This document shows positions 4,137-64,000 of a stretch of DNA of 64,000 nucleotides, in pieces; within the stretch, counting starts at the first letter, position 1; each line of letters begins with the position of its first letter. This stretch comes from an uncultured Saprospiraceae bacterium (GTDB lineage Bacteria > Bacteroidota > Bacteroidia > Chitinophagales > Saprospiraceae). The notes beneath the pieces were generated by a model. The model saw only the letters and a program-made list of their open reading frames with translations. It did not search any database and was not told where the DNA came from. Where the stretch lies: assembly GCA_964621185.1 (NCBI GenBank), contig CAZULM010000029.1, positions 987-64,986 of the forward strand. Reading direction: 5' to 3'. The translations under genes were made by a program, and so were the position numbers.

Positions 4137-4182
4137 TCACTTTTCGCTGCCTTTCAGTCAATAAACAAATGCTCATGAATTA

Positions 4183-5724
4183 ATGAAAAACTCCCTTTTA
4201 CTGCTTGGGCTTTGCGCCTTTTCCATTAGCGCCCAACCCACCATCCAATGGCAAAAAACCTTTGGCGGTAGTTATTTTGACGAAGCCTCCTGCATCCGCC
4301 CAACTACTGACGGGGGCTATGTTATTGCAGGCTGGACAGGCTCTAACAATGGCGATGTAACAGGCTTCCATGGTATTATTGATTTTTGGGTAATAAAAAT
4401 CGATGCTATCGGAAACGTGGAATGGTCAAAAGCGCTCGGCGGAAGTGATGATGACCGGGCATTCGCCATTCGTCAAACCTTGGACGGAGGGTTTATTGTA
4501 GTTGGATTTACCCAGTCAGATGACGGCGATGTTATTGATTTTCACGGTTATAAAGATGCATGGGTTGTAAAACTGAACAAATTCGGTGAAATAGTTTGGC
4601 AAAAAGCAGTTGGGGGCAGTGATTGGGACGAAGCTTGGTGTGTCGAATTAACCTCAGATGGGGGTTTTATTGTAGGCGGCAGATCAAGCTCTACGGACGG
4701 CGATGCAGCTGGGAACCCAGGCAATTTTTTGGATTATTGGATCGTAAAAATGAGCGGTAACGGCGATATTCAGTGGCAAAAATCCTTTGGCGGAAGCAAC
4801 GAGGAAACAGTCATTGCCATCCGCCAAACATCTGATGGCAGCTATATCCTGGCTGGTGAAACCCAATCCACAGATGGCGATGTACAAGGAAATAACGGCA
4901 ACGTAGATTTTTGGGCCGTAAAACTTAGAAGCACCGGCGACTTGGAATGGCAACACCCCCTCGGTGGTACCGGCTTGGATATCGGAACCGATATCATTGA
5001 AACCGTTGACGGATACATCGGATTTGGCTATGCCGGCTCCAACAACGGCGACATTACGGAGCACAAAGGCCTTTTCGACTACTGGGTCGTAAAGCTGAAA
5101 AAGACGGGTGAGCTTGTCTGGCAAAAAACAATCGGCGGCACCAATGATGATTATGCTAGAAGCCTCCTGGTCGAAAACGATGGCAGTCTTATCCTGGCTG
5201 GCACCACAAAATCCAAAGACGGCGACGTGCCATACCACAACGGCATCCAGGTGATGTGGGTGGTGAAAATGAGCCCAACAGGACAGATAATCTGGCAAAG
5301 GACCCTCGGCGGCACCCAGGGCGAAGCCTGTTATTCCATCCAAAAAACAAGCGATGGAGGCTATATCCTCGCCGGCTCGGCTTGGTCGAACGACGGCGAC
5401 GTCACGGGCGTGAAAGGCAAGTCGGATGTCTGGATCGTCAAGCTCGGCCCGGAAGCTCTGGGTGTCGGTAAAGCCCCACATGATGCCGCTACCGCACTCG
5501 GAATCTACCCCAACCCAGCCCGGCAAACAGTCACCCTGAAAGCCCCGAGCGATACCCCGAGCTTAGATTTTGTGATCTCCGACCTGCAAGGCAAGGAAAT
5601 GCGCCGGCAGCACATCCCGAACGGTGGCAGCGTCGATGTGTCCGCGTTCCCGAGCGGGATGTACCAGGTGCTGGCGCTCTCGCCTGCGGGAGAGCTGTAT
5701 TCCGGGATGATGCGGAAAGAATGA
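4183..5724 (+). CDS. Secreted beta-propeller-like repeat protein with T9SS type-A CTD (tandem paralog 1)
   Basis: Signal peptide MKNSLLLLGLCAFSISAQ. About 7-8 repeats of ~52 aa with the pattern W.K..GGS..D.A..I..T.DGG(Y/F)I..G.T.S.DGDV.G.HG..D.WV(V/I)K(L/I)...G...W. C-terminus IYPNPARQTVTLKAP...GMYQVLAL. Confidence 0.85.
   Translation: MKNSLLLLGLCAFSISAQPTIQWQKTFGGSYFDEASCIRPTTDGGYVIAGWTGSNNGDVTGFHGIIDFWVIKIDAIGNVEWSKALGGSDDDRAFAIRQTLDGGFIVVGFTQSDDGDVIDFHGYKDAWVVKLNKFGEIVWQKAVGGSDWDEAWCVELTSDGGFIVGGRSSSTDGDAAGNPGNFLDYWIVKMSGNGDIQWQKSFGGSNEETVIAIRQTSDGSYILAGETQSTDGDVQGNNGNVDFWAVKLRSTGDLEWQHPLGGTGLDIGTDIIETVDGYIGFGYAGSNNGDITEHKGLFDYWVVKLKKTGELVWQKTIGGTNDDYARSLLVENDGSLILAGTTKSKDGDVPYHNGIQVMWVVKMSPTGQIIWQRTLGGTQGEACYSIQKTSDGGYILAGSAWSNDGDVTGVKGKSDVWIVKLGPEALGVGKAPHDAATALGIYPNPARQTVTLKAPSDTPSLDFVISDLQGKEMRRQHIPNGGSVDVSAFPSGMYQVLALSPAGELYSGMMRKE
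5410..5690 (+). repeat. 281-bp block identical to 7170-7450 (3' CTD-encoding ends of the tandem paralogs)
   Basis: Base-by-base comparison at a fixed offset of 1760 shows no mismatch across the block. Identity falls to about 75-80% further 5'. Confidence 0.9.
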
Positions 5725-5730
5725 GGAGCC

Positions 5731-5854
5731 GAGTTTTTGTTTCTCACGACAAGAAAAGGTTTCTCACAACGGCACGACGACACAACGGAACTTCTTCCAA
5801 AGCGTTTATAATCAAACTGTTGTGTCGTTTTCTCGTTGTGTCGTCGTGAGAAAC
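5731..5854. repeat. REP-like module cluster: GTTTCTCAC(AACGGCAC)GACGACACAACG units in inverted orientation
   Basis: Left units lie at 5739-5788. The inverted unit cgttgtgtcgtcgtgagaaac lies at 5834-5854 and can pair with them (9 + 12 bp stems). Related units occur at 7491-7542 and 18551-18579. Confidence 0.6.
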
Positions 5855-5936
5855 TAAAACATTCAGGAATATCACCGCTCCTGTACCCAAATTGGCGACA
5901 TGGATTCACAGCGACCAACCATCAAACAGTTTATAA

Positions 5937-7484
5937 ATGAAAATTATTTGTTTTTGGCTTGCAACCTTGTTTTTCCCAATGGTGCTACTTGCACAACCCC
6001 CCATCAAATGGCAGAGAACCTTTGGCGGCACCTACTTCGATGTTGCACATTGCATCCGCCCAACTACCGATGGAGGCTATATCATAGCAGGCTGGACCGG
6101 GTCCAACAACGGTGATGTCACAGGCTTCCACGGAATCGCTGATTTTTGGGTAATAAAACTAAATGCTTTAGGCGAATTAGAATGGACAAAAACACTCGGC
6201 GGCAGCGACGACGACGAGGCATATGCCATTCGACAAACCAACGACGGAGGGTATATTGTCGCTGGTTTCACCCAATCTGACGATGGGGATGTTACGGGCT
6301 TTCACGGCGAACAGGATGTATGGGTAGTAAAACTGGATAAATTCGGGGAAATAATCTGGCAAAAAGCCATTGGGGGTTCTGGTAGCGATGAAGCTTGGTG
6401 CCTCGAACTAACCTTAGATGGAGGATGCATCGTGGGTGGTCGGTCAAGTTCCACGGATGGCGATGCAGAAGGGAATCCCGGCAACTACCTTGATCTCTGG
6501 GTGGTAAAAATGAACAGCGCCGGAGAAATCGAGTGGCAAAAATCCTTTGGTGGTAGCAGTGAGGAAACCGCAACTGCCATCCGACAAACATCAGATGGTG
6601 GTTATATCATCGCCGGGGAAACCCTTTCCTCAGATGGCGATATTCAAGAAAAAAATAACAATTTTGACTTTTGGGTTATCAAAATTAGAAGTACCGGAGA
6701 TATGGAATGGCAACACCTCTTTGGTGGTACTGGCTTAGACATTGGGTCAGATATTATTGAAACGGCAGACGGATACGTTGGATTTGGCCTGGCCGGCTCC
6801 AACAACGGCGACATTACCGAACACAAAGGTATCTTCGACTACTGGGTCGTCAAGCTGAAAAAAACCGGCGAGCTGATCTGGCAAAAAACAATCGGCGGCA
6901 CCAATGCCGACTACGGCAGGAGCTTCCTCATCGAGGATGACGGCAGCTTTATCCTGGCTGGCACCACAAAATCCAAAGACGGCGACGTACCCTACCACAA
7001 CGGCATCCAGGTGATGTGGGTAGTAAAAATGAGCCCAACAGGGCAGATAATCTGGCAAAAGACACTGGGCGGCACCCAGGGTGAAGCCTGCTATTCGGTC
7101 CAAAAAACAAGCGATGGCGGCTATATCCTCGCCGGCTCGGCTTGGTCGAACGACGGCGACGTCACGGGAGTGAAAGGCAAGTCGGATGTCTGGATCGTCA
7201 AGCTCGGCCCGGAAGCTCTGGGTGTCGGTAAAGCCCCACATGATGCCGCTACCGCACTCGGAATCTACCCCAACCCAGCCCGGCAAACAGTCACCCTGAA
7301 AGCCCCGAGCGATACCCCGAGCTTAGATTTTGTGATCTCCGACCTGCAAGGCAAGGAAATGCGCCGGCAGCACATCCCGAACGGTGGCAGCGTCGATGTG
7401 TCCGCGTTCCCGAGCGGGATGTACCAGGTGCTGGCGCTCTCGCCTGCGGGGGAGCTGTATGCAGGGATGATGCGGAAAGAATGA
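5937..7484 (+). CDS. Secreted beta-propeller-like repeat protein with T9SS type-A CTD (tandem paralog 2)
   Basis: Same architecture as 4183-5724. Signal peptide MKIICFWLATLFFPMVLLAQ. The C-terminal ~120 aa are almost identical to paralog 1. Confidence 0.85.
   Translation: MKIICFWLATLFFPMVLLAQPPIKWQRTFGGTYFDVAHCIRPTTDGGYIIAGWTGSNNGDVTGFHGIADFWVIKLNALGELEWTKTLGGSDDDEAYAIRQTNDGGYIVAGFTQSDDGDVTGFHGEQDVWVVKLDKFGEIIWQKAIGGSGSDEAWCLELTLDGGCIVGGRSSSTDGDAEGNPGNYLDLWVVKMNSAGEIEWQKSFGGSSEETATAIRQTSDGGYIIAGETLSSDGDIQEKNNNFDFWVIKIRSTGDMEWQHLFGGTGLDIGSDIIETADGYVGFGLAGSNNGDITEHKGIFDYWVVKLKKTGELIWQKTIGGTNADYGRSFLIEDDGSFILAGTTKSKDGDVPYHNGIQVMWVVKMSPTGQIIWQKTLGGTQGEACYSVQKTSDGGYILAGSAWSNDGDVTGVKGKSDVWIVKLGPEALGVGKAPHDAATALGIYPNPARQTVTLKAPSDTPSLDFVISDLQGKEMRRQHIPNGGSVDVSAFPSGMYQVLALSPAGELYAGMMRKE
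7170..7450 (+). repeat. 281-bp block identical to 5410-5690
   Basis: See the entry for 5410-5690. Confidence 0.9.
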
Positions 7485-52886: not shown

Positions 52887-55800
52887 ATGAAAAACACAAA
52901 TTTCTATCTTTCAGGCGCCGTATCGTGCCGAAACACGCAAAATTCCCCGAGCTTTCCTGCGGGGGGGGGGGGCAAAGCCCCGTTTTCGTTCATTTTTCTC
53001 CTTTTTTGGGTAATGGCCTGTTTTTTCGCTGAATCGGCAGCAGGGCAGAATGGCGGGCCGGGGAGTTCCTGGACCTCCGGGGTCAATTTTGGCACCAACA
53101 GCCCCAGTGCTGAAGATACCTGGGCTTTCGATGCTGCCGAAATGCCCAATGGCGACTTGGTCATTGTGGGATACGCAGAGACAGGAGATGGCGATGTCCG
53201 GGTGCCTGCCTTTGCTGTGCTTAACAAATACGGCGAGCTTTTAACTTCTCAATACATCACTGGATATCCTGGCGTATTCAGCCAGGTTGACCTGTCTGAT
53301 GATGGGACATATTTGATTTTGGCAGGATTCCGTGGACTCCCTGACGATGACGACCCCGGAGACAGCGAATCGCCCGAGAATGCTGATGCCCTATTGACGA
53401 GGCTTAATTTTATCGGCCAGGGATACTACGTTGATTGGTCCCAACAGTATGCCGTGGGGAAAACGACGGAAGTCCCGGACGGCAACGGCGGCAACTTCCC
53501 GTTTGTCACCGGACAGGAACGCTTCACCTCGGTTGATATTACGCCCACCGGCACTGTTGTCTTGAACGGAGGGCTCAGGAAGGGCAACAGCGCCAACCCC
53601 GAATTTGGCTACCAGTTTATTTATGTGGTGACTTCAGATGGCGATTTTGTCTCTGAACGCATCTTTACCGAAACAAACGGCTTCTTGAGCGATTGCAAGG
53701 TGGTGAATATCAACGGAGTAGAATCCATAATCTTTACTGGGTTCCAGCAAATGGGGAACGGCGCCTGGAAATTCGAGATTACCGACAACACGCCAAATTC
53801 GGACAACAAGCCCTTTATAAACAGCAAGCACCCGATATGTGACCGAGACATCGTGATCGGCAAACTTGCGCTGAACGACCTCCAAAACGGATTTATTAAA
53901 TACTATAACGGCAACAGCTATCCCTACTCCAATTATGCTTATGACGACCCTCAAAATCCAGGGGCGCCGACCTACATAAACCCTCATACAGGGATATGGG
54001 ATGCGCCGGATATCGACGAATGTCCCGACAAGTTTGGGCCCTGTACCCCGGGCAAAAGTGTTCCAGGATGGGGCTTCGCAGCAGATGGCAGCAAAAGTGG
54101 ATCCCCGGCAATAGACAAATACCTCGGCATCACATCCTGCGATATAGGCAAGAGCATCGTGTACAAAGATGGTTATATCTACGTCGCAGCAGAGGTGAAT
54201 ATGCTTGAATTCTCTGGGAGCCAGTACAACAATTTACAGTTCAGCGAACCCCACCCGGGTGCGGAGATTCCCGGCAAGGGCGTGCTCCTGAAGGATCGGT
54301 GCGATGGGGACAACTGGTGGTATTCCGCCTATAAAGATGCATCCATCCATATTATCAGGGTAAAAGCCGATGGCACAGGCGGCGCTTTCGTTAAAAATGT
54401 GGCCCATTTCAGCGGCGGGGACTTCGCCCCTGCCCTGATCGTCGATCAGACCGACGGTAACCTCGTCTTGGGCGGCAACAGCGGGGATGACGGCGTTGGG
54501 GCTTGCTTCCCGGAAATGGACAACTGCCACGGAGAGGAGAACATGCTGATCAAACTTGACATAAACACGCTCGACGTGATATGGCAGCAGTCGCACCTCG
54601 CTTATGGGCACGGCAATTGTGTCTTTGGCCTGATCCAGACCGCCGACGGGGGATATGTGCTCGTAGGCAACAATGAACTGGAGGGCGACCACGAGACCTT
54701 CAACATCATCCGGTTTACTCCCGACTGCCAGGGCAAAGCCAATTTCCACCAGGATGGCGACTATCTTGTCACATCAGCCGACGAGCAATGGTCGCCCGCC
54801 AACAAGCCCAACCCTTACCGTTTCCGGGGAAATGTCATCGTCCCGAACGGTAAGAAACTCACCATTAAAGATGGCCTGGTGGTAGAGTTCGCCAGCACGA
54901 AAGCCACCCCTGACCACCGAAAATCCGGGATCACCGTGCAAGCAGGGGGCAACCTGGATGTGTTGGGGGCATCCGTCCTCAAAGGCATAGACTGTGGCGG
55001 GGAGAACATGTGGGACGGCATCACGGTGCTGGGCAACCCGAACGCGCCCGCTGGCCCGCAGCAAGGCAGGGTGTCGGTCACTGGCTTGTCCAGGATCGAG
55101 AACGCAGTGCGCGGCGTCGTGCTGGGGAATACCGCCTGGGCGACCGAAACCAGGTACCTCAACGATGGTAACACCCTCGGCACCAATATTGCCGATACCT
55201 ACATGGACAACTTAGGCATGGGCGGTGGAAGGATTTTTGCGGGGAACGCGACTTTTTACAATTGCGGCAGAGGCGTAGTGTGGGAGCCACAGCCGGCTTT
55301 TTCCAACCTCAGCACACTGATCAACGCCAAGTTTGAGTTCACTGGGGGGCTTGCCGACCCGATGTACGCGTTTATGCCCGATTGGCCCTCCAGCGGCCGA
55401 CCAACGGGCGCCGAACTGGGCTGCCGCCTGCGGTCGGTGCGCGACGTGCGGTTCATCAACTGCTCCTTTGTCGCCACGGCGCCGGTCGGCTTCTACCCGC
55501 TCCAGCGTAACCGCCCGAGCGGCATATATGCCACCGATGCCAAGTTTTCCTTCTCAGGCGGCGGGTTCCCACAACATTTCGAGAACCTGTACATCGGCAC
55601 AGAATCCGCCTCCATGCTGGCCGGCCTGGCCACCACCCTCAGCTTCAGCGGCGCGAAGATGAACAACGTGTATCAGGGCCTAAACGTAAGGGGCAATATC
55701 GCCCCAAACATCGCAGGCTGCCATTACACCAACATCCCCGAAGAAGGGCAGCTGAAAGATGGCACCCCGGTGGGGGTCTTTACCCTGAACACCCAGGGCA

Positions 55801-57038
55801 TCGCTCTAAGCGGCAACGAATTCAGCTCCGATGCCGATTACAAGTCCTTTGGCGCCATCACCCAAAATACCCTCGGCACCGGCGGCGCAAAAGTAGCGCA
55901 CAACACTTTCACCGACATGAACATCGCCAACCTCTTCGATGGCGACAACTCCGCCCTGCAGACACACTGCAATACTTATCAGGGTGATGTGGGGGATGTT
56001 TCTTGGAATGTGAAGGGGGTACTGGCGAACCAAGGGAATCCATTAAACCCATTGACTCCTAAGCCAGACAATAAATTTCTCTGGGACTGCGGTGCGCCGC
56101 TATTAGACATTAGCAACGGTAATTCACAGCCTTTTTCTTATTTTGAACGGCTAGAATCACCAAGCAATACAAGTTCAATAGTCAAATGCACGGAGAATGT
56201 GGTCGTTTTTTTTGACAACTCAGATGCTGGTGCAGCAAATTGTGTCATAGAAGACCCCTGCCCCAACCCGCCGAACTGCTACACCCTTGCCACAGCCTAT
56301 ACAAACAGTGGCCATGCATTGCCGTATCGCAACGACCTGCTCAATGCCTATGTTCGGATGCAGCCAACAGCAGTTCCCGATTCGCTTTCTCTGCCAGGGA
56401 CCACGCGAGGGATCGACTTGCTGCTGACCCGGGGCCAACAGGAAGACAAGCGTATCCTGGTGGCAACTTATACATCTTTGGGCAATTTTAGTGCCGCCCA
56501 GCAGTATCTGCAACAGGTATCAGGCGCCTCTGCCGAGACCCAGGATTTTATTGCCTATTATGCTGTGTTGGTCAATGCGGGCCTGGCTGGCCGTGACGCT
56601 TACCACCTGACATCCTCGGAATTTGCCCAATTGGCGCCCTTGATGGCCAACAGCAGCACGGTGGCAGATCAGGTAAAAGTGCTCGACCATGTTCTGAACG
56701 GCGTGTATCACCCGCTTTCCGCAGAATCGGAAAACAGCGGCCGGACTGGGAACCGGGAAGGCGATGCTTCAAGTTTGAGCCAATCCAAAAAGCTGCTCGT
56801 TTTCCCCAACCCTTTCAGTGAGGCCCTGCGTTTTGCTGCGCCGGAAGGTCTGTCCATTTCCATGCTCACGATCACGGATATTTCCGGCAAGCACCTGTAT
56901 GAGCAGCGCTTTAGAAAATCTGAATCGTTGGTCAATTGGCAGCCCAACGACGTGCCTGCTGGAATATTATTGTACCGATGCGTCCTTTCCGACGGAGAAT
57001 CAGTGCATGGAAAGCTCCTTTACACAAAAAATCAATGA
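52887..57038 (+). CDS. Large (1383 aa) secreted protein with propeller-like N-terminal repeats, beta-helix-like centre and T9SS type-A CTD
   Basis: Start at the ATG at 52887 (MKNTNFYLSG...), hydrophobic segment FSFIFLLFWVMACFFAESAAG. C-terminus LLVFPNPFSEALRF...GILLYRCV. Its stop overlaps the next start (ATGA at 57035-57038). Confidence 0.75.
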   Translation: MKNTNFYLSGAVSCRNTQNSPSFPAGGGGKAPFSFIFLLFWVMACFFAESAAGQNGGPGSSWTSGVNFGTNSPSAEDTWAFDAAEMPNGDLVIVGYAETGDGDVRVPAFAVLNKYGELLTSQYITGYPGVFSQVDLSDDGTYLILAGFRGLPDDDDPGDSESPENADALLTRLNFIGQGYYVDWSQQYAVGKTTEVPDGNGGNFPFVTGQERFTSVDITPTGTVVLNGGLRKGNSANPEFGYQFIYVVTSDGDFVSERIFTETNGFLSDCKVVNINGVESIIFTGFQQMGNGAWKFEITDNTPNSDNKPFINSKHPICDRDIVIGKLALNDLQNGFIKYYNGNSYPYSNYAYDDPQNPGAPTYINPHTGIWDAPDIDECPDKFGPCTPGKSVPGWGFAADGSKSGSPAIDKYLGITSCDIGKSIVYKDGYIYVAAEVNMLEFSGSQYNNLQFSEPHPGAEIPGKGVLLKDRCDGDNWWYSAYKDASIHIIRVKADGTGGAFVKNVAHFSGGDFAPALIVDQTDGNLVLGGNSGDDGVGACFPEMDNCHGEENMLIKLDINTLDVIWQQSHLAYGHGNCVFGLIQTADGGYVLVGNNELEGDHETFNIIRFTPDCQGKANFHQDGDYLVTSADEQWSPANKPNPYRFRGNVIVPNGKKLTIKDGLVVEFASTKATPDHRKSGITVQAGGNLDVLGASVLKGIDCGGENMWDGITVLGNPNAPAGPQQGRVSVTGLSRIENAVRGVVLGNTAWATETRYLNDGNTLGTNIADTYMDNLGMGGGRIFAGNATFYNCGRGVVWEPQPAFSNLSTLINAKFEFTGGLADPMYAFMPDWPSSGRPTGAELGCRLRSVRDVRFINCSFVATAPVGFYPLQRNRPSGIYATDAKFSFSGGGFPQHFENLYIGTESASMLAGLATTLSFSGAKMNNVYQGLNVRGNIAPNIAGCHYTNIPEEGQLKDGTPVGVFTLNTQGIALSGNEFSSDADYKSFGAITQNTLGTGGAKVAHNTFTDMNIANLFDGDNSALQTHCNTYQGDVGDVSWNVKGVLANQGNPLNPLTPKPDNKFLWDCGAPLLDISNGNSQPFSYFERLESPSNTSSIVKCTENVVVFFDNSDAGAANCVIEDPCPNPPNCYTLATAYTNSGHALPYRNDLLNAYVRMQPTAVPDSLSLPGTTRGIDLLLTRGQQEDKRILVATYTSLGNFSAAQQYLQQVSGASAETQDFIAYYAVLVNAGLAGRDAYHLTSSEFAQLAPLMANSSTVADQVKVLDHVLNGVYHPLSAESENSGRTGNREGDASSLSQSKKLLVFPNPFSEALRFAAPEGLSISMLTITDISGKHLYEQRFRKSESLVNWQPNDVPAGILLYRCVLSDGESVHGKLLYTKNQ
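52961..52972 (+). repeat. G12 homopolymer inside the 5' coding region (codons for AGGGG)
   Basis: Counted directly: c at 52960, twelve g at 52961-52972, c at 52973. Confidence 0.95.
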
Positions 57039-58594
57039 CCGTGCGGAAGATATTGGCACTGGCGCTGCTCACCCAGGTTTGGGTGGGCAGCGCCCAGGTT
57101 TATTTTAGTAAACAAATAGACTGGATGAATAATTATGAATCCTTGGGATTTATTACAACCACCAAAGACTATGGGAATTTCCTAGTATCTGGAGGTAGTT
57201 TTAGTCTAGATCCATGGTTAGAACAAGCTTTTTTTGCGAGATTTGACAATCTGGGAAATATAAAAGGAACTGGCGTAAGCCTTCCATCTGGGAGCCATTT
57301 CGGTAGTTCAAGAGATGCGATTACTTTAGATAGTACTTACAGCTTGATAATGGGTTCGTTTTATATATATTCCAATGGAATTGAAAACGCCCAAATGTTT
57401 CTCATTAAAATTAATACACTGACTGGTGACACAATCTGGACTAGACATTATGGGTTACCAGATAAGCATGACTTCGGGAAAAAATTAATAAAAACGAAAG
57501 ATAGCGGCTATGCTGTTGCAGGAAAGACTTTTTTGGCCACTAATCAACCTCCAGAGAAAATTCTTTTGTTCAAAATTGATAGCAGTTGGAATCAGGTTTT
57601 CAGAAAAGAGTATTCAACAAATCTTGCAAATGCCCATAATGGCTGGGCAATAACAGAAACCGTTGATCATGGATTCATTCTATCCTGTTCTATAGTTTAT
57701 CAAGGGCTTTGTGCAGGTTGCGCTACAGTTGATTATATGAATGATATTCTTTTGATCAAAACCGATGCTCTTGGGAATCAGCTTTGGACAAAAAGGTTGG
57801 CCCCTACGGAATGGAAACAGTATAGCTGGGGCGGATTTGATATTCAGCCTCTGCCTGACAGTACAATTATTATTTTCGGCAATAAATATTACCACATTTA
57901 CAATCAAACATTTTCCGACTACTCCCGCTATATGCTCTTTAAGTTCAACATGGATGGTACCCTTTTAGACTCAACTTCTTTTGGTGGTGGAGATGGAACA
58001 CTTATTACAACCACTATTCCTACTACAGACAAGAATTTTTTGGCGGCTGCTACAGAAAACGACTCATCATTTGTTGGCATCGGGCAGACTGGAGTACTGT
58101 TGAAAATTTCACCTTCTCTTGAATTGCTTTGGAAAAAGGAATACCGCATTAGCCCGCCGGGGGTAAAGTTTTATGAAAAATTTTTTGATGCGATTCAATT
58201 ACCGGACCAAGGATTCATTGTTTGTGGCAGCGCATATGAAGATAGCACTAAGCAAAACGGCTGGATACTCCGCGTGGACTCCCTCGGCTGCCTCGAACCC
58301 GGCTGCGACGGCAGCAGCGCCGCCCCGGAACCGCCCGGCGAAGGCCCGGGCATCGCCCTGTCGCCCAACCCCACCGGCGGGGCCTTTCGCATCGCGCTCA
58401 CCCGCCCGGGCGAGGTGCTGCTCGGGGTGCGCCTGCTCGACCTGCAAGGGAGGCTGATCAGCGACCTGCAGTACCTCCGCAGCGCCGGCTGGCGGGAATG
58501 TGAGCTCGACTTGTCGGGGCAGCCGTCGGGGGCGTACTTGGTGCAGGTGCGCACGAGGGCGGGCTGGGCGCTGCGGAAGGTGCTGAAACAATGA
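57035..58594 (+). CDS. Secreted propeller-like protein with T9SS type-A CTD (tandem paralog A)
   Basis: Signal peptide MTVRKILALALLTQVWVGSAQ. AT-rich body (about 37-40% GC). GC-rich 3' module SPNPTGGAFRIALT...GAYLVQVRT. Confidence 0.8.
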   Translation: MTVRKILALALLTQVWVGSAQVYFSKQIDWMNNYESLGFITTTKDYGNFLVSGGSFSLDPWLEQAFFARFDNLGNIKGTGVSLPSGSHFGSSRDAITLDSTYSLIMGSFYIYSNGIENAQMFLIKINTLTGDTIWTRHYGLPDKHDFGKKLIKTKDSGYAVAGKTFLATNQPPEKILLFKIDSSWNQVFRKEYSTNLANAHNGWAITETVDHGFILSCSIVYQGLCAGCATVDYMNDILLIKTDALGNQLWTKRLAPTEWKQYSWGGFDIQPLPDSTIIIFGNKYYHIYNQTFSDYSRYMLFKFNMDGTLLDSTSFGGGDGTLITTTIPTTDKNFLAAATENDSSFVGIGQTGVLLKISPSLELLWKKEYRISPPGVKFYEKFFDAIQLPDQGFIVCGSAYEDSTKQNGWILRVDSLGCLEPGCDGSSAAPEPPGEGPGIALSPNPTGGAFRIALTRPGEVLLGVRLLDLQGRLISDLQYLRSAGWRECELDLSGQPSGAYLVQVRTRAGWALRKVLKQ

Positions 58595-58620
58595 AAATAT
58601 GGGAAATATGAAAGCTCCTT
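58269..58620 (+). repeat. 352-bp block identical to 59878-60229 (CTD module plus the gene junction); 61480-61806 is the third copy with 2 substitutions
   Basis: Direct comparison of the three gene ends. About 70% GC against about 38% in the preceding gene body. Confidence 0.9.
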
Positions 58621-58634
58621 TACACCAAAAAACA

Positions 58635-60203
58635 ATGACCGTGCGATATTTCTTGGCACTGGCGCTGCTCATCCAGGTTTGGGCGGGCAGCGCCCAGGTC
58701 TATTTCAATAGGCAGATAGACTGGGAGCATCAATATGAATTTCTTTCTGGTATTGCATTAAATAATGATGGAGAGGAAACCTTTGTTGTTGGTGGCGCTG
58801 TAGATGTATTTTCAACTCAAAATTATTCTGTAATTGCCCAACTTGATTCCAATGGTGATTATTATTGGAAAGGAACTTTCTCCCCTGATTCCAACTTGTA
58901 CGGACAGACTTATCATCTTGAAACCCTTACAGGAAATTACGCATTACTATTAGGAAACTATTGGAAATTATTGCCAGATGGTACTTTTAATCTACAGATT
59001 TATTTAACAAAAATAAACACTCAAACCAATAGCGTAGCTTGGACAAAAGAATTCGGTCAGAACACTATTTCTGAGCAAGGATGGACAATTCAGAAAACCC
59101 AAGCTAATGGAGCCATAATTTGCGGGGGAAGTTTACTTGAAAACAATTCAAGCCACACAAAAATGCTCCTCCTCAAAACCGACAGCCTCGGTAACCAGCA
59201 ATTCCGCAAAGAATATACCACCGATCCCAGCATGGACCACTATGCGTATTCGCTGGTGCAAACTGCGGATGGGGGGTATCTGATATTGGGGGTGCGTGCA
59301 TATTTTGGCACATATCAGGGAGGTGTTGGCACCATCCATAAAAATGATTTGGTGCTGCTCAAAACCGACACTCAAGGCAATCAGCAATGGGTTAAAATTT
59401 ACGCTCCCTGGGAATGGAAACAGATTTTATATAATGGGTTCGATATCCAGCTGTTGGCTAATGGTGACTTTATTACTGTTGGTGCTAAAAGTTATGCTAT
59501 TTTTGAACCAAACAATACATACACAGGCAAATATTTTTTGGCAAGGTTCAACCCCCAGGGTGAGATTGTCGATTCGGTCACACTCCCCAAAAGCTACTAT
59601 TTTTTCAAAGTAAACCGCCTCAAGCCCTCCCACGACGGCAATTTCTGGGCCATCGGCGCCGAAAAAGACTCTTCCAGCACCGGCCAGACGGGCCTGATCA
59701 TGAAAATCACGCCCAACTTGGAAATCTTGTGGAAGCGCGAGTACCGGGTAAGCCCGCCGGAGTCCATGCTGCACGAAATGTTCTACGAGGGGGTGGAGAT
59801 GCCCGACCACGGCTTTGTGCTGTGCGGCGGCGCGTTCGGTCCGCTGGAGGACAGCACCAACGCCAACGGCTGGGTCATCCGCGTGGACTCCCTCGGCTGC
59901 CTCGAACCCGGCTGCGACGGCAGCAGCGCCGCCCCGGAACCGCCCGGCGAAGGCCCGGGCATCGCCCTGTCGCCCAACCCCACCGGCGGGGCCTTTCGCA
60001 TCGCGCTCACCCGCCCGGGCGAGGTGCTGCTCGGGGTGCGCCTGCTCGACCTGCAAGGGAGGCTGATCAGCGACCTGCAGTACCTCCGCAGCGCCGGCTG
60101 GCGGGAATGTGAGCTCGACTTGTCGGGGCAGCCGTCGGGGGCGTACTTGGTGCAGGTGCGCACGAGGGCGGGCTGGGCGCTGCGGAAGGTGCTGAAACAA
60201 TGA
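58635..60203 (+). CDS. Secreted propeller-like protein with T9SS type-A CTD (tandem paralog B)
   Basis: Signal peptide MTVRYFLALALLIQVWAGSAQ. The N-terminal body is divergent from paralogs A and C. The 3' module is identical. Confidence 0.8.
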   Translation: MTVRYFLALALLIQVWAGSAQVYFNRQIDWEHQYEFLSGIALNNDGEETFVVGGAVDVFSTQNYSVIAQLDSNGDYYWKGTFSPDSNLYGQTYHLETLTGNYALLLGNYWKLLPDGTFNLQIYLTKINTQTNSVAWTKEFGQNTISEQGWTIQKTQANGAIICGGSLLENNSSHTKMLLLKTDSLGNQQFRKEYTTDPSMDHYAYSLVQTADGGYLILGVRAYFGTYQGGVGTIHKNDLVLLKTDTQGNQQWVKIYAPWEWKQILYNGFDIQLLANGDFITVGAKSYAIFEPNNTYTGKYFLARFNPQGEIVDSVTLPKSYYFFKVNRLKPSHDGNFWAIGAEKDSSSTGQTGLIMKITPNLEILWKREYRVSPPESMLHEMFYEGVEMPDHGFVLCGGAFGPLEDSTNANGWVIRVDSLGCLEPGCDGSSAAPEPPGEGPGIALSPNPTGGAFRIALTRPGEVLLGVRLLDLQGRLISDLQYLRSAGWRECELDLSGQPSGAYLVQVRTRAGWALRKVLKQ

Positions 60204-60229
60204 AAATATGGGAAATATGAAAGCTCCTT
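59878..60229 (+). repeat. Second copy of the 352-bp identical block
   Basis: See the entry for 58269-58620. Confidence 0.9.
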
Positions 60230-60243
60230 CACAGCAAAAAACA

Positions 60244-61800
60244 ATGACCGTGCGAAAGGTATTGGCACTGGCGCTGCTCGCCCAGGTTTGGGTGGGCAGC
60301 GCCCAGGTTTATTTTAGCAAACAAATAGACTGGATGAATAATTATGAATCCTTGGGATTTCTTACGACCACAAGAGACTATGGGAATTTCCTAGCATCTG
60401 GAGGTAGTTTTAGTCTAGATCCATGGTTAGAACAAGCTTTTTTTGTGAGATTTGACAATCTGGGAAATATAAAAGGAACTGGCGTAAGCCTTCCATCTGG
60501 GAGCCATTTCGGAAGCGCTAGAGACGCAATCACTCTGGACAGCTTTCATAGCCTGATTGTGGGTTCATTCTATGTGTTTTCGAATGGAATTGAAAACGCT
60601 CAAGTATTTCTAATCAAGATCAATACTTTGACTGGAGACACTATTTGGACGAGACAATACGGCAAACCTGATCGGAATGAATTTGGGAGAAGCATTATTA
60701 GAACCAAAGATCAGGGATTTATTTCATTGGGGTTTTCATATTCGTCCAATAATCAGCCGCCCGAAAAAATATTGCTTATTAAAGTTGATAGCATTGGGGG
60801 TTTAGTATTTAGAAATGAGTATTCAACTAACATTTCACACAATCAAAGGGGCTGGGCGATAGTTGAAACCACTGATGGAGGTTTCTTGTTATCGTGCAAT
60901 GATAACTTCCAAGGAGTATGTTTTGGATGTTCATCAACTGGTTTTTTAGCCGATATCTTGTTATTAAAAACAGATGCCCTCGGAAATCAACAATGGTCAA
61001 AGGTTTTTCAAGCTTTAGAGTGGATGCAATACACTTGGTCAGGCTATAACTTTATTCCGATCACAGATTCAACTTTTGCTTTATTGGGCAATAAAGGCTA
61101 TCGGGCCAATGGGAATCAGAGTGGTTATTTTAATTATTTCCTGTTTATTCTAAATTCTGATGGGAATATTATTGATTCAACCTCATATAAAGGAGGGGTC
61201 GATGCCGTTCCTACAAGTTTAATAAAATTGCGAGATGGAAATTTATTGATCACGGGGTCAGAAAACGATTCACTAATGGGAAGTATAGGGCAAACAGGGG
61301 TTTTAATGAAATTAAATCAATCTCTCCAACTTCAATGGAAAAAAGAATATCATATAAGTCCACCTGGAACCCCTATTTATGATAGATTCTTTGAAGCTAT
61401 TCAAATGCCTGATTTCGGCTTTGTTGTTTGCGGAAGTTCTTATGAGGATTCCACTAAGCAAAACGGCTGGATACTCCGTGTGGACTCCCTCGGCTGCCTC
61501 GAACCCGGCTGCGACGGCAGCAGCGCCGCCCCGGAACCGCCCGGCGAAGGCCCGGGCATCGCCCTGTCGCCCAACCCCACCGGCGGGGCCTTTCGCATCG
61601 CGCTCACCCGCCCGGGCGAGGTGCTGCTCGGGGTGCGCCTGCTCGACCTGCAAGGGAGGCTGATCAGCGACCTGCAGTACCTCCGCAGCGCCGGCTGGCG
61701 GGAATGTGAGCTCGACTTGTCGGGGCAGCCGTCGGGGGCGTACTTGGTGCAGGTGCGCACGAGCGCGGGATGGGCGCTGCGGAAGGTGCTGAAACAATGA
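60244..61800 (+). CDS. Secreted propeller-like protein with T9SS type-A CTD (tandem paralog C)
   Basis: Signal peptide MTVRKVLALALLAQVWVGSAQ. The first ~270 bp are about 95% identical to paralog A, then identity decays. Same 3' module. Confidence 0.8.
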   Translation: MTVRKVLALALLAQVWVGSAQVYFSKQIDWMNNYESLGFLTTTRDYGNFLASGGSFSLDPWLEQAFFVRFDNLGNIKGTGVSLPSGSHFGSARDAITLDSFHSLIVGSFYVFSNGIENAQVFLIKINTLTGDTIWTRQYGKPDRNEFGRSIIRTKDQGFISLGFSYSSNNQPPEKILLIKVDSIGGLVFRNEYSTNISHNQRGWAIVETTDGGFLLSCNDNFQGVCFGCSSTGFLADILLLKTDALGNQQWSKVFQALEWMQYTWSGYNFIPITDSTFALLGNKGYRANGNQSGYFNYFLFILNSDGNIIDSTSYKGGVDAVPTSLIKLRDGNLLITGSENDSLMGSIGQTGVLMKLNQSLQLQWKKEYHISPPGTPIYDRFFEAIQMPDFGFVVCGSSYEDSTKQNGWILRVDSLGCLEPGCDGSSAAPEPPGEGPGIALSPNPTGGAFRIALTRPGEVLLGVRLLDLQGRLISDLQYLRSAGWRECELDLSGQPSGAYLVQVRTSAGWALRKVLKQ

Positions 61801-61806
61801 AAATAT
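61480..61806 (+). repeat. Third copy of the CTD-encoding block
   Basis: Identical to the other copies over 61480-61763. Substitutions at 61764 and 61770. Confidence 0.9.
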
Positions 61807-62600: not shown

Positions 62601-64000
62601 ATGATCAATATTCGCCTTTTAATACCCTTTTTCGCGCTTTCCCTGCCTGTAGCGGCCCAGCCCGTACAGTTTTCTTGGGGGCATGAGGCTTTGCCCCTCA
62701 ATTTTAACGAAGCAAAACACCGGCCCCTCCCCGCCGCCCAGGAAATCGTGCTGGGGAAATACGCCCGTTACCTGCAATTCGAAAAAACGCTACATTCAGC
62801 AGCGCAAAGCGATTTGCAGGCTCTTGGCATCGATGTGCTCAGCTATGTTTACCCGGCCACTTACCTGCTCCTGCTGCCCGACGGCCTTGACTTGCAGCAG
62901 CTCCAGCGATTTTCGCCGCTGAGTATCGCGGCCCTGAAACCGGAATGGAAAATGGCCAAAAGCCTGCGGGAACCGCCTTACGGCTCCTGGGCCGTTCACG
63001 GCGGCTGGATCGACGTCAACCTCCAGCTTTTCCCGAACGTCCCCATCGAAACTGGCGCCCGCTGGTGCCGCGAAAACGGCATCGTTGTGCTGAAAGAAGG
63101 CAGCCAGAACGGTTTTTTACAGGCGAGCATACGCCAGGACGAAATCCTTGAAAAAGCCGCCTTGCCCTTTATCCGGTACCTGGAACTGCTGCCCCCGCCC
63201 GCCACCAAAGACGACACCCGCGCCCGCGCCATGCACCGCAGCAACATGCTGGACGTGGCGCACCCCTCCGGCAAAAAGTTCAACGGCGAGGGCGTGCGCG
63301 CCCTCGTGCGCGACGACGGGAAAATCGGGCCGCACATCGATTTCCAGGGCCGCTTGGTCAACTTGGCCGAAGGCCCGCCAGCCAAAGGCATCCACGGCGA
63401 TGCGGTCGCCGGCGTGCTGGGCGGCGCGGGCAACCTCGACCCCGGCAAAAAAGGCATGGCCGCCGGCGCCGAGATATTCTCCATCGACGTCGAGCAGGAA
63501 TTCCAGGACGCCACCCTGACCCTGCACCTCACCAAAGGCATCAACCTCACCAACACCTCCTACTCCAGCGGCTGCAACACCGGCTACACCATGGCCGCCC
63601 AAACCGTTGACAAACAGCTTTTTGAAAACCCCTCCCTGATGCACGTGTTCTCTTCGGGCAACTCCGGGCTCAACGACTGCAACTACGGCGCAGGGCCAAC
63701 CTGGGGCAACATCACGGGCGGCCACAAAATGGCCAAAAACGGCATCACCGTCGGCAACGTGGCCCAGGACGGCATGTTGGACCTCACTTCGAGCCGCGGC
63801 CCGGCACACGACGGGCGGCTCAAACCCGATATCTGCGCCAACGGCAAAAACCAGTTTTCCACCTCCATCGACAATGCCTACGTCGAGTTTGGCGGCACTT
63901 CGGGCGCTGCGCCCGGCATCGTCGGCTGCCTGGCTCAATTGACCCAAGCCTTCAAAAGCCAGCACAGCGGGCAAGTGCCGGATGCCAGCCTTTTAAAAGC
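62601..64000 (+). CDS. Subtilisin-like (S8) serine peptidase, 3' partial (runs off the window)
   Basis: Not in the ORF track because no stop is reached. My translation from the ATG at 62601 is open to base 64000. Signal peptide MINIRLLIPFFALSLPVAAQ. Candidate triad contexts LVRDDG (Asp), HGDAVAG (His), GGTSGAAPG (Ser), and oxyanion SSGNSG. Confidence 0.8.
   Translation, partial: MINIRLLIPFFALSLPVAAQPVQFSWGHEALPLNFNEAKHRPLPAAQEIVLGKYARYLQFEKTLHSAAQSDLQALGIDVLSYVYPATYLLLLPDGLDLQQLQRFSPLSIAALKPEWKMAKSLREPPYGSWAVHGGWIDVNLQLFPNVPIETGARWCRENGIVVLKEGSQNGFLQASIRQDEILEKAALPFIRYLELLPPPATKDDTRARAMHRSNMLDVAHPSGKKFNGEGVRALVRDDGKIGPHIDFQGRLVNLAEGPPAKGIHGDAVAGVLGGAGNLDPGKKGMAAGAEIFSIDVEQEFQDATLTLHLTKGINLTNTSYSSGCNTGYTMAAQTVDKQLFENPSLMHVFSSGNSGLNDCNYGAGPTWGNITGGHKMAKNGITVGNVAQDGMLDLTSSRGPAHDGRLKPDICANGKNQFSTSIDNAYVEFGGTSGAAPGIVGCLAQLTQAFKSQHSGQVPDASLLK

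Follow-up and report, generated by a model that had tools for sequence, protein, structure and literature searches.

A tandem array of T9SS cargo genes with divergent beta-propeller bodies and near-identical sorting-signal modules in a Saprospiraceae bacterium

How can neighboring genes encode bodies that differ markedly, and end in virtually the same few hundred nucleotides? This question is raised by three adjacent T9SS cargo genes, A, B, and C, arranged in tandem in a 64,000-nt stretch of DNA from a Saprospiraceae bacterium (hereafter, the window). The bodies of A and C are 66% identical at the protein level and those of A and B 39%, whereas the last ~330-350 nt of the three genes are 100/100/99% identical and display a base composition sharply set off from that of the bodies.

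Layout of the array and anatomy of the encoded proteins

Paralogs A (57035..58594), B (58635..60203), and C (60244..61800) are all encoded on the plus strand, directly 3′ of a 1383-aa T9SS cargo gene (52887..57038, plus strand), which matches TIGR04183 weakly at residues 1305-1370 and the TGA stop codon of which overlaps the ATG of paralog A (ATGA). Paralogs A and C carry bodies of one lineage (A/C-type), and paralog B belongs to another (B-type). Alternative start codons are present for paralog B (an in-frame ATG at 58599, 4 nt past the stop of A) and for paralog C (ATG at 60208). The upstream gene is 62% identical in amino acid sequence, over its full length, to the 1374-aa gene occupying the same position in the relative L035, and in other genomes nearly every family member adjoins a gene ending in ...HGK(L/I)(L/I)xxKK(Q/K)*.

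Both junctions within the array retain a piece of this neighbor. The A/B junction (58611..58634, plus strand) and the B/C junction (60220..60243, plus strand) each repeat the 24 nt at 57011-57034, which encode the last 8 codons of the 1383-aa gene; L035 retains, between its two copies, a longer relic of 166 aa, which matches the final 163 aa of its own upstream gene at 83% identity. The initial annotation had taken the junction repeats as marks of the unit of unequal crossing-over, and the relics do mark a duplicated unit: one is present at each junction because the duplicated unit began within the 3′ end of the upstream gene. These traces indicate that tandem duplication of such a unit founded the array.

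Paralog A comprises a putative Sec signal peptide, a beta-propeller body, a conserved, Cys-containing linker (GWILRVDSLGCLEPGC), and a T9SS type-A CTD, and B and C, as members of the same Saprospiraceae family, are built from corresponding parts. The N-terminus, MTVRKILALALLTQVWVGSAQ followed by VYF, can be read by eye as a positive n-region, a hydrophobic core, and an A-x-A-like site, and residues 2-17 form a helix in the AlphaFold model. In the model of paralog A (mean pLDDT 87), an all-beta propeller is followed by a C-terminal beta-sandwich. The best PDB match of the predicted propeller is the CylK propeller (TM 0.59), and the CTD, modeled as part of the whole protein, adopts an Ig-like beta-sandwich fold of seven strands (residues 440-518, pLDDT ~84-91). 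All three paralogs score above the cut-off of 23 bits for TIGR04183 (A, 25.7; B, 27.6; C, 25.9 bits); with PF18962, B and C score 28.5 and 29.4 bits, respectively, and A 26.6 bits, just under the cut-off of 27. A domain search of the bodies detected no peptidase domain; they are homologous beta-propellers instead. The same genome encodes T9SS machinery, including SprA (TIGR04189, 2292 bits) and GldM (TIGR03517, 283 bits), and carries more than 360 CTD-bearing frames. The array may thus provide the cell with differing propellers that all bear one common export/attachment tag.

Homogenized ends and old bodies

The shared 3′ module spans, in copy A (58269..58620, plus strand; GC 0.73, GC3 0.92), the linker, the CTD, the stop codon, and the start of the junction. 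Copy B (59878..60229, plus strand) is 100% identical to it over 352 nt, and copy C (61480..61806, plus strand), in which the repeat stops 6 nt past the stop codon, is 99% identical, with exactly two differing sites (61764 and 61770), precisely as initially annotated. A whole-genome search recovered these three copies only.

The history of the bodies can be traced through their orthologs. At the nucleotide level, the body of A is 83% identical to its ortholog X917455_1 from another species (dN 0.07, dS 0.67), compared to 67% identity to C and 50% to B; the nearest relatives of the B body are B-type genes in other genomes (66-70%). Other species of the genus carry orthologs of both the A/C-type and the B-type bodies at the syntenic position. 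Synonymous divergence between the paralogs is saturated, and the dN/dS values of the bodies (0.08-0.17) indicate purifying selection. Judging from these comparisons, the bodies are old paralog lineages that have long diverged under purifying selection at a syntenic locus. The component of the initial annotation that finds no support is the suggestion that variable, possibly foreign N-terminal bodies were shuffled in: both body types have syntenic orthologs within the genus, are under purifying selection, and share their compositional mosaic with the entire family.

The module shows the opposite affinity. That of A is 99-100% identical to those of B and C vs 77% to the module of the X917455_1 ortholog, from which it differs with a dN of 0.186, compared to 0.07 for the body. 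Paralog A thus displays the pattern of concerted evolution, with a module closer to those within the genome and a body closer to the ortholog. Because the two parts of the gene point to different nearest relatives, conversion after speciation is well supported. The borders of the converted segments are sharp: maximum chi-square analysis places breakpoints at ~58256 (A-B), 58246 (A-C, 3′ side), and 57304 (A-C, 5′ side), with chi-square values of 129-279 vs at most 24 in 1000 permutations. The genes are accordingly mosaics, as the initial annotation had proposed, and its notion of a constant sorting-signal cassette homogenized by gene conversion is well supported by the phylogenetic incongruence together with these breakpoints. 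A further parallel that it had drawn, to the gene pair at 4183-7484 of the window, also holds, the CTDs of this pair being 99-100% identical vs 72-82% for the bodies.

The 5′ breakpoint delimits a second tract, at 57035..57304 of paralog A (plus strand; chi-square 129), which matches 60244-60513 in C. The two genes had been described as ~95% alike over their first ~270 bp and decaying thereafter, with B different throughout, and the alignment agrees: A and C are 94-99% identical over the first ~90 codons, after which identity drops to 0.43-0.76. The dS between them is 0.074 within the tract and saturated further on. Since the dS between A and its ortholog is raised over codons 22-95 (1.66 vs 0.67 in the rest of the body), C was probably the donor and A the recipient.

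The incongruence and the breakpoints point to the following sequence of events. Once the lineage had separated from the nearest sampled species, the copies underwent non-reciprocal homologous recombination with one another, which overwrote the last ~330-350 nt of all three genes with a single sequence; a second tract, covering the first ~270 nt, was copied between C and A. Conversion may have been limited to the ends because only the signal-peptide/hairpin region and the linker with the CTD are similar enough to start recombination; conversion restricted in this manner would reinforce itself.

Base composition and competing explanations

The compositional contrast was quantified by a GC profile in 200-nt windows and by GC and GC3 values calculated from codon alignments of bodies and modules. 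The profile is far from flat: GC ranges from 0.335 to 0.45 in the bodies and peaks at 0.755-0.76 at the 3′ ends, in agreement with the initial estimates of ~37-45% and, for the last ~330 bp, ~70%. In the codon alignment, the bodies have a GC of 0.375-0.449 and a GC3 of 0.32-0.50, and the modules a GC of 0.725-0.731 and a GC3 of 0.90-0.92, against a genome background of 0.529 (mean GC) and 0.69 (median GC3). The module GC3 of 0.92 falls in the top 0.3% of the genome, whereas A and C, by body GC3, belong to the lowest 1% of genes. The three modules rank second to fourth for GC when every 300-nt window of the 6.4-Mb genome is considered, and among the 361 CTD-bearing frames compared, A, B, and C show the largest CTD-minus-body GC contrast. 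Paralog B had been described as becoming richer in GC from about 59150; the rise is patchy at 59100-59400 and continuous only from ~59500, with GC3 climbing from 0.67 to 0.97 across codons 315-430.

This combination of an AT-rich body and a GC-rich tail recurs in every one of the ~25 family members examined (more than 12 genomes), among them a single-copy locus, where the module is already GC-rich (GC3 0.66). The modules of other relatives, including distant ones, have GC3 values of 0.66-0.87, and low body GC3 is common to all family members despite saturated dS. Because the mosaic is family-wide and extends to the single-copy locus, the composition appears to be a standing property of the family rather than the result of a recent import.

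A link between homogenization and GC content emerges from other genes of the same genome. Four of the five other paralog sets with CTDs far more alike than the bodies lie at or above the 97th percentile of GC contrast (Mann-Whitney test on the five sets, focal family left out: GC, p = 0.004; GC3, p = 0.0005). In the array and four other paralog sets, the step in identity coincides with the step in GC3; the exception among the six sets is the C8 pair (CTD 89% identical), which shows no GC contrast. At third positions of the module, 19 sites are G/C here and A/T in the ortholog, with 4 in the reverse direction, compared to 44 and 57 in the body. When changes are polarized, 6 AT-to-GC and 3 GC-to-AT changes are assigned to the lineage studied here vs 0 and 14 in the non-homogenized sisters (Fisher p = 0.0008, with small counts). 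The relative G034, whose genome is complete and consists of a single contig, contains three arrays in which the CTD tracts are 0.9-1.0 identical and the bodies 0.4-0.75, and the GC3 of the CTD exceeds that of the body.

The most economical account of these patterns is GC-biased gene conversion (gBGC), whereby repeatedly converted segments would preferentially fix AT-to-GC changes, and the rarely recombining bodies would drift to an AT-rich mutational equilibrium. From the sequence comparisons, we infer that GC-biased conversion underlies the extreme GC3 of the module, and rare recombination the low values of the bodies. Two observations qualify this reading. With a GC3 of 0.21-0.33, the recent A-C 5′ tract is an AT-rich exception to the GC3 enrichment of converted tracts, so that conversion alone does not lift GC quickly; and given the GC3 of 0.66 at the single-copy locus, conversion within arrays cannot be the sole cause of the GC richness.

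An alternative source of the GC would be an unsampled GC-rich donor, either a gene or an organism, from which the module was acquired before spreading to the three copies. The module GC of 0.73 is indeed far above the genome mean, and the nearest known module is 77% identical and separated by many G/C-to-C/G changes (13-18 GC-neutral changes at third positions). We nevertheless consider a donor unlikely, given that the modules of all relatives are already GC-rich, that four unrelated paralog sets show the same coincidence of identity and GC3, that the genome contains no further copy of the module, and that the sister lineages decay toward AT while the lineage studied here does not. Still less probable is the inverse scenario, in which one gene was recently triplicated and the bodies were then exchanged for foreign DNA, leaving the identical CTD as a duplication remnant. 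The AT-richness of the bodies relative to the genome median GC3 would fit it, and the conserved 5′ and 3′ islands could act as recombination anchors; however, this scenario is largely refuted by the ortholog of the A body at the same locus in another species and the genus-wide occurrence of both body types, by the low GC3 of every family member despite saturated dS, by dN/dS values of about 0.1, and by the incongruence with the ortholog, which affects the module rather than the body. Selection at the nucleotide level, be it on an RNA structure, an antisense gene, or a DNA site, is the least credible cause of the identity and GC content of the module. Long antisense ORFs overlap the module, as they would any GC-rich stretch, but its predicted folding energy shows no excess (z = +0.66; in 73 of 100 shuffles the fold is as good or better), it matches no Rfam family, and the modules of orthologs differ from it by 12-28% of nucleotides, indicating that the module sequence is not constrained across species.

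The draft nature of the genome, a short-read MAG of 127 contigs, calls for consideration of yet another possibility, namely, that a single collapsed repeat node was threaded three times by the assembler, in which case the identity, and perhaps also gene order or gene number, would not be real. In the Logan contigs of the likely source run, which break at the repeat borders, the module is collapsed into one 327-nt contig containing variants missing from the assembly, including a T at 58350, a site that reads G in each of the three assembled copies; the true identity of the modules may accordingly be 98-100% rather than 100%. In addition, one X2 contig links the end of B, the module, and the start of B. 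However, the depth of the collapsed module, 71 vs 25-35 for the bodies (~2.5×), supports a copy number of about three, and at k = 31 the collapse itself requires near-identical copies. Furthermore, the two C-specific substitutions are resolved, every body is in frame with its module, a contig assembled in an independent study extends across the C body and the module into the unique downstream flank, and the same mosaic is present in a complete single-contig genome. We therefore regard an artifact of this kind as quite improbable. On balance, the explanation that we favor as a whole, and consider probable, is that the array consists of old, divergent propeller paralogs, the ends of which have been homogenized by conversion and the composition of which has been shaped by gBGC.

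A conserved hairpin and the relation to known systems

The 5′ region of each gene contains a hairpin within the signal-peptide coding region, at 57061..57094 in A and at the same place in B (58661-58694, with one mismatch) and C (60270-60303), all on the plus strand. It consists of a 15-bp GC-rich stem (11 of the 15 pairs are G-C), a 4-nt loop, and a T-rich tail, with 7 T in 8 nt located 4 nt past the stem or directly after the extended stem. The hairpin was matched by a terminator search, having, as far as the sequence goes, the GC-rich stem-loop and U-rich tract of a terminator, and it is unusually stable (MFE z = -5.8). Across 18 family genes, 98.9% of the 270 pair cells are paired, and 8 of the 15 pairs show double changes (33 cells), a level reached in 0 of 500 shuffles and contrasting with at most 3 cells in slid controls. 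The presence of a G.U pair makes the hairpin strand-specific. A covariance model yields matches only in genomes that carry the family. In the core family, the hairpin is in-frame and codes for the signal peptide's hydrophobic core, so that compensatory changes alter the peptide, whereas in distant relatives it is located just 5′ of the ATG. The covariation thus indicates that pairing is maintained through compensatory substitutions even as these rewrite the peptide. The hairpin resembles intercistronic REP/SRPS stem-loops in being a stable stem-loop with a U-rich tail that lies between the upstream cistron and the paralog, is copied along, and is maintained in its pairing, but differs from them in that, in the core family, it sits inside the reading frame.

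The arrangement of the array is known in outline, the closest known cases being the KLIKK proteases and the gingipains. The KLIKK proteases of Tannerella forsythia (Ksiazek et al. 2015, PMC4404884) similarly combine divergent N-terminal functional parts with a common export tag. However, their bodies are described as belonging to different catalytic classes (PMC9890683), whereas those analyzed here are homologous propellers of two old lineages, and their genes follow small inhibitor-lipoprotein genes rather than a large T9SS cargo gene or its relic. A KLIKK-type protease cluster can thus be rejected for this locus, which shares with such clusters only the near-identical CTD. A keyword scan of PMC4404884 returned nothing on recombination, duplication, or GC content, and no account of a GC mosaic, of the dating of conversion, or of a signal-peptide hairpin was found in that paper. 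In Porphyromonas gingivalis, variation of the gingipain/haemagglutinin genes rgpA, kgp, and hagA has been ascribed to homologous recombination and gene conversion (Dashper et al. 2017, PMC5266723). These, too, are paralogous T9SS cargo genes whose domains are combined in modular fashion and whose CTD is conserved; unlike the array, they are dispersed, and it is adhesin modules that are exchanged between strains, whereas here, in a tandem arrangement with a strong composition contrast, essentially only the tag and the signal-peptide ends have been homogenized.

gBGC is known in multigene families, such as mammalian histone genes and rDNA, and for bacteria the gBGC hypothesis was reportedly set out by Lassalle et al. 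in 2015. Its operation in bacteria is disputed (PMC8153448, PMC6867656). The array resembles the known cases in that often-converted segments have raised GC3 and AT-to-GC changes outnumber GC-to-AT changes in the homogenized lineage; it differs in that individual bacterial genes display the contrast internally, where conversion tracts between paralogs begin or end, with a repair bias as the putative mechanism. As such, the array gives an unusually clean hint of gBGC in a bacterium. A more far-reaching and, at present, tentative possibility, to which we assign somewhat less than an even chance, is that the T9SS paralogs of Saprospiraceae represent a natural gBGC experiment, and that the signal-peptide hairpin is an intercistronic attenuator or stabilizer absorbed into the coding region. 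If this is the case, GC3 would leap within single genes from ~0.3 to ~0.9 at the very starts of conversion tracts, and would do so repeatedly, both in five or more gene families of the genome studied here and in another genome, which is complete.

Gene array and family context

Four co-directional genes with hardly any spacing between them lie at positions 52887-61800, all on the forward strand: a large gene of 1383 aa (52887-57038) and three paralogs of ~520 aa each, A (57035-58594), B (58635-60203, alternative start 58599), and C (60244-61800, alternative start 60208). The ATG of A overlaps the stop codon of the 1383-aa gene (ATGA). The ends of A, B, and C match the type-A sorting domain (CTD) of the type IX secretion system (T9SS) (TIGR04183, 25.7-27.6 bits with a cut-off of 23; PF18962, 26.6-29.4 bits), and profile matches to the remaining bodies are confined to faint beta-propeller repeats. 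In an AlphaFold model based on 31 homologs (mean pLDDT 87), a short low-confidence linker connects an all-beta propeller to a seven-strand sandwich; the closest solved structure is the CylK propeller (TM 0.59, 16% identity). The predicted fold is clearly that of a propeller, but the match does not allow assignment of a specific activity. The host MAG (6.4 Mb, 127 contigs; Saprospiraceae, bioreactor metagenome) encodes SprA and GldM, as well as over 360 CTD-bearing frames. In public annotation, B is called as a fragment of 346 aa (P0020, start MLLLKTD...), as opposed to the frame 58599-60203; its true start escapes the gene callers, perhaps owing to the AT-rich 5′ half.

The family is patchily distributed, being present in 16 of the 114 species genomes of the genus, and public proteins are at most 82% identical, all originating from Saprospiraceae-type metagenomes. 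The locus is syntenic in two relatives, where an ortholog of the large gene (62% aa identity) precedes two copies (L035) or one copy (L036) of the family gene, with rpsJ coming next; since a subtilase (Peptidase_S8) gene lies downstream of the array here (62601-63998, +), conservation does not extend to the right flank. In the species with the closest ortholog of A, an IS66-family transposase gene is found directly behind the single family gene (L034:3319-4416). At 17 of 19 loci, a distance of 0-4 nt separates the start of the family gene from the stop of a gene whose product ends in ...HGK(L/I)(L/I)xxKK(Q/K), a spacing which suggests that the large cargo gene and the propeller gene form an old, translationally coupled two-gene unit, with several copies per genome. 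The stop of the large gene and the start of the propeller gene often coincide as ATGA, the upstream gene being a large T9SS cargo ending in ...HGKLLxxKKQ.

As reported in the initial annotation, both junctions between paralogs, at 58611-58634 and 60220-60243, carry a copy of the 24 nt with which the upstream gene ends. Between the two family genes of L035 lies a headless 166-aa ORF (L035:7599-8099, in G107:C237) that shares 83% identity with the C-terminal 163 residues encoded by the upstream gene, which has 1374 aa there; its frame remains open, and the CTD profile still recognises it. This places the start of the duplication unit within the upstream gene, and the corresponding relic has been trimmed to about 24 nt in the present genome.

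A homogenised 3′ module on inherited bodies

Re-examination bore out every sequence observation made initially on the three genes. The GC-rich 3′ module, comprising the linker and the CTD, is exactly identical between A and B over 352 nt (58269-58620 and 59878-60229), and that of C (61480-61806) differs at 61764 and 61770; the genome holds no fourth copy. The bodies are divergent, with protein identities of 66% between A and C and 39% between A and B, and the first 90 codons of A and C are 94-99% identical. Maximum chi-square analysis places breakpoints at ~58256 (A-B), 58246 (A-C), and 57304 (A-C, 5′), with chi-square values of 129-279 compared with a permuted maximum of 24.

The composition of these segments is extreme. 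The genome has a GC content of 52.9%, all of its 21,251 non-overlapping 300-nt windows stay below 0.74, and places 2 to 4 in the GC ranking of all sliding windows are taken by the three modules. The third-codon-position GC (GC3) of the modules, 0.90-0.92, falls within the top 0.3% of 108-codon windows (genome median 0.69), and that of the A and C bodies, 0.32-0.34, within the lowest 1% of genes. The largest CTD-minus-body GC contrasts among 361 CTD frames are those of the three paralogs (+0.29, +0.29, +0.23), the next being +0.19. GC-rich CTDs as a genome-wide habit are ruled out by the mean difference of -0.012 over the 361 frames, and RNA structure in the module by a folding z of +0.66; Rfam families gave no match in this segment. 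Windows with the highest GC3 in the genome (0.96-0.98) belong to another multi-copy CTD family (C15:91395-97734, C6:1-1521, and relatives), copies of which are often situated at contig ends.

The initial annotation proposed gene conversion of a constant cassette combined with shuffling of possibly foreign bodies. The first part is supported by a codon alignment of 23 family genes. The body of A is nearest to its ortholog from another species, X917455_1 (83% nt identity, dN 0.07, dS 0.67), compared with 67% to C and 50% to B, whereas its module is 99-100% like those of B and C and only 77% like that of X917455_1, the module dN (0.186) exceeding that of the body. The body of B groups with B-type genes of other genomes (66-70%). 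Thus, the paralogous bodies predate the split of the species and the shared module postdates it, which is the signature of gene conversion; as the ortholog shows, the tag end was overwritten after speciation and the bodies were inherited vertically. A probably also received its first 95 codons from C, because they are near-identical to C (dS 0.074) and far from the ortholog (dS 1.66). No concerted evolution of the module was found across the relatives, whose co-resident modules are 72-88% identical, no more than between genomes; the homogenisation in this genome is therefore recent and lineage-specific. The second part of the proposal found no backing: orthologs of the bodies occupy the syntenic locus, low GC3 is family-wide, and body dN/dS values of 0.08-0.17 point to purifying selection; no foreign sign was found.

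The assembly was checked against Logan contigs from the likely source run and from other runs. Source-run contigs break at the repeat borders, the module being represented by a single 327-nt contig whose depth of 71, compared with 25-35 for the three bodies, agrees with a copy number of about three; nothing in the Logan contigs contradicts the gene number or order. In a sand metagenome from another study, one contig links the C body, by way of the module, to the unique flank downstream, with no differences over ~975 nt of body and four in the 327-nt module; hence, the module varies between strains more than the body. Module variants absent from the MAG occur in Logan contigs of three runs (58350, 58383, 58558; 61543, 61549, 61556, 61770). 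The MAG has G in all three copies at the position where collapsed contigs carry T (58350) and the sand-metagenome contig carries T at the equivalent 61556, so that the apparent 100% identity of the modules should be read as 98-100%.

Compositional mosaic and proposed recurrent conversion

Every family member examined combines an AT-rich body (GC3 0.32-0.52) with a GC-rich module (0.66-0.87, and 0.90-0.92 in the present array), including those at a single-copy locus and homologs of only 31-44% identity. Because synonymous divergence between the paralogs is saturated, the two compositions are not relics of origin and must be maintained. An all-against-all comparison of the 361 CTD ends uncovered five further sets in which CTDs are much more similar than bodies (99 vs 80%, 96 vs 73%, 95 vs 87%, 92 vs 70%, and 89 vs 71%), four of which reach at least the 97th percentile for CTD-minus-body GC (Mann-Whitney on these five sets, focal family excluded: GC, p = 0.004; GC3, p = 0.0005). 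In each of those four (window positions 4165-5724 and 5937-7484; C27:41121-42638 with C13:108823-110337; C45:41745-48314; C16:50479-53398), identity and GC3 go up at the same place, the 3′ tracts being 92-100% identical and the bodies 70-87%. B-type genes are alike over a longer 3′ stretch and have a GC3 of 0.67-0.97 there. GC3 tracks similarity between paralogs. In G034, a complete single-contig genome from another family of the order (44% GC), three arrays of T9SS propeller paralogs likewise have CTD tracts with identities of 0.9-1.0, bodies with 0.4-0.75, and a higher GC3 in CTDs than in bodies; these arrays (L053, L054, L055) are long and tandem, with patchwork identity, several tracts per gene pair, and shared CTD ends.

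We infer, in part from small counts, that this pattern stems from GC-biased fixation tied to recurrent conversion. Strict parsimony polarisation left only 19 informative changes in the focal lineage, with six AT-to-GC and three GC-to-AT, compared with 0 and 14 in three non-homogenised sister genes (Fisher, p = 0.0008). Given so few informative changes, unpolarised third positions were also compared with the same ortholog: the module carries G/C opposite A/T in the ortholog 19 times and the reverse four times, as opposed to 44 and 57 in the body, which rules out a genome-wide shift. Speaking against GC-biased conversion, the recent A-C tract at the 5′ end is AT-rich, and one of the six paralog sets lacks a GC contrast. 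Less probably, the module was instead supplied by an unsampled GC-rich donor.

A hairpin in the signal-peptide code and relation to known arrays

A terminator scan detected a hairpin on the forward strand in each paralog (A, 57061-57094; B, 58661-58694; C, 60270-60303), which begins 26 nt downstream of the respective ATG within the signal-peptide code and consists of a 15-bp GC-rich stem, a 4-nt loop, and a T-rich tail (folding z = -5.8 vs shuffles). Pairing is kept in 98.9% of 270 pair cells across 18 family genes, and double-sided changes affect 8 of the 15 pairs (33 cells), a value reached in none of 500 shuffles; a slid partner gives at most three cells. The encoded peptide varies with the stem (TQVWVGS, TFSKVGA, ISVEVGS, ISAEMGS), the stem extends to 18 bp where a two-codon insertion is present, and a G.U pair renders it perfect on the sense strand only. 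A covariance model recovers three instances outside the training set and finds the hairpin in 11 of the 114 genus genomes, all family carriers except for one weak match (G007, E = 3.5e-4). The GC-rich stem accounts for the small GC peak at each 5′ end.

Both a mobile palindromic repeat and a general feature of secreted-protein genes were rejected as readings of the motif: stems of at least 13 bp are rare (428 strand-specific loci), those of other CTD genes lie mostly upstream of the likely start codon, and the covariance matches are confined to family-bearing genomes apart from the weak one. A terminator-like hairpin plus T-tract also occurs in a distant paralog of the same genome (contig C108) and in homologs with 31-38% identity, where it is located just upstream of the ATG and directly behind the preceding T9SS gene, with no space for a promoter between them. 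We therefore take the coding hairpin to be a putative intercistronic attenuator or transcript-stabilising element overgrown by the reading frame. A sigma-70-type scan, whose model does not cover Bacteroidota promoters, returned 10 sites vs 10.1 expected. A literature search for hairpins inside signal-peptide coding regions yielded nothing pertinent, and one on gene conversion in the T9SS turned up a single paper.

The KLIKK proteases of Tannerella forsythia (PMC4404884) are a known case of clustered T9SS cargo genes with near-identical CTDs, and the gingipain/HagA genes of P. gingivalis (PMC5266723) one of domain modularity with recombination. The present locus belongs with these systems, but in an environmental lineage; it stands apart in having homologous bodies, a dated conversion event, an extreme GC3 mosaic, and a hairpin-encoded signal peptide. 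The signature of GC-biased conversion and the coding hairpin most merit further work.

T9SS arrays with a shared tag are familiar from oral pathogens, and the constancy of the tag has rarely been dated or quantified. Whether recombination is associated with GC bias in bacteria is still argued, and the array sets GC-rich, converting and AT-rich, non-converting segments side by side in the same gene, as do the four sister cases, with strand, expression, and position equal for body and module, so that most genome-wide confounders are removed; population reads would allow the question to be tested here and in the four sister cases. The hairpin bears on annotation, B being truncated to 346 aa in public calls, and on how expression of the array is set; it also shows that selection on RNA pairing can mould a signal peptide.
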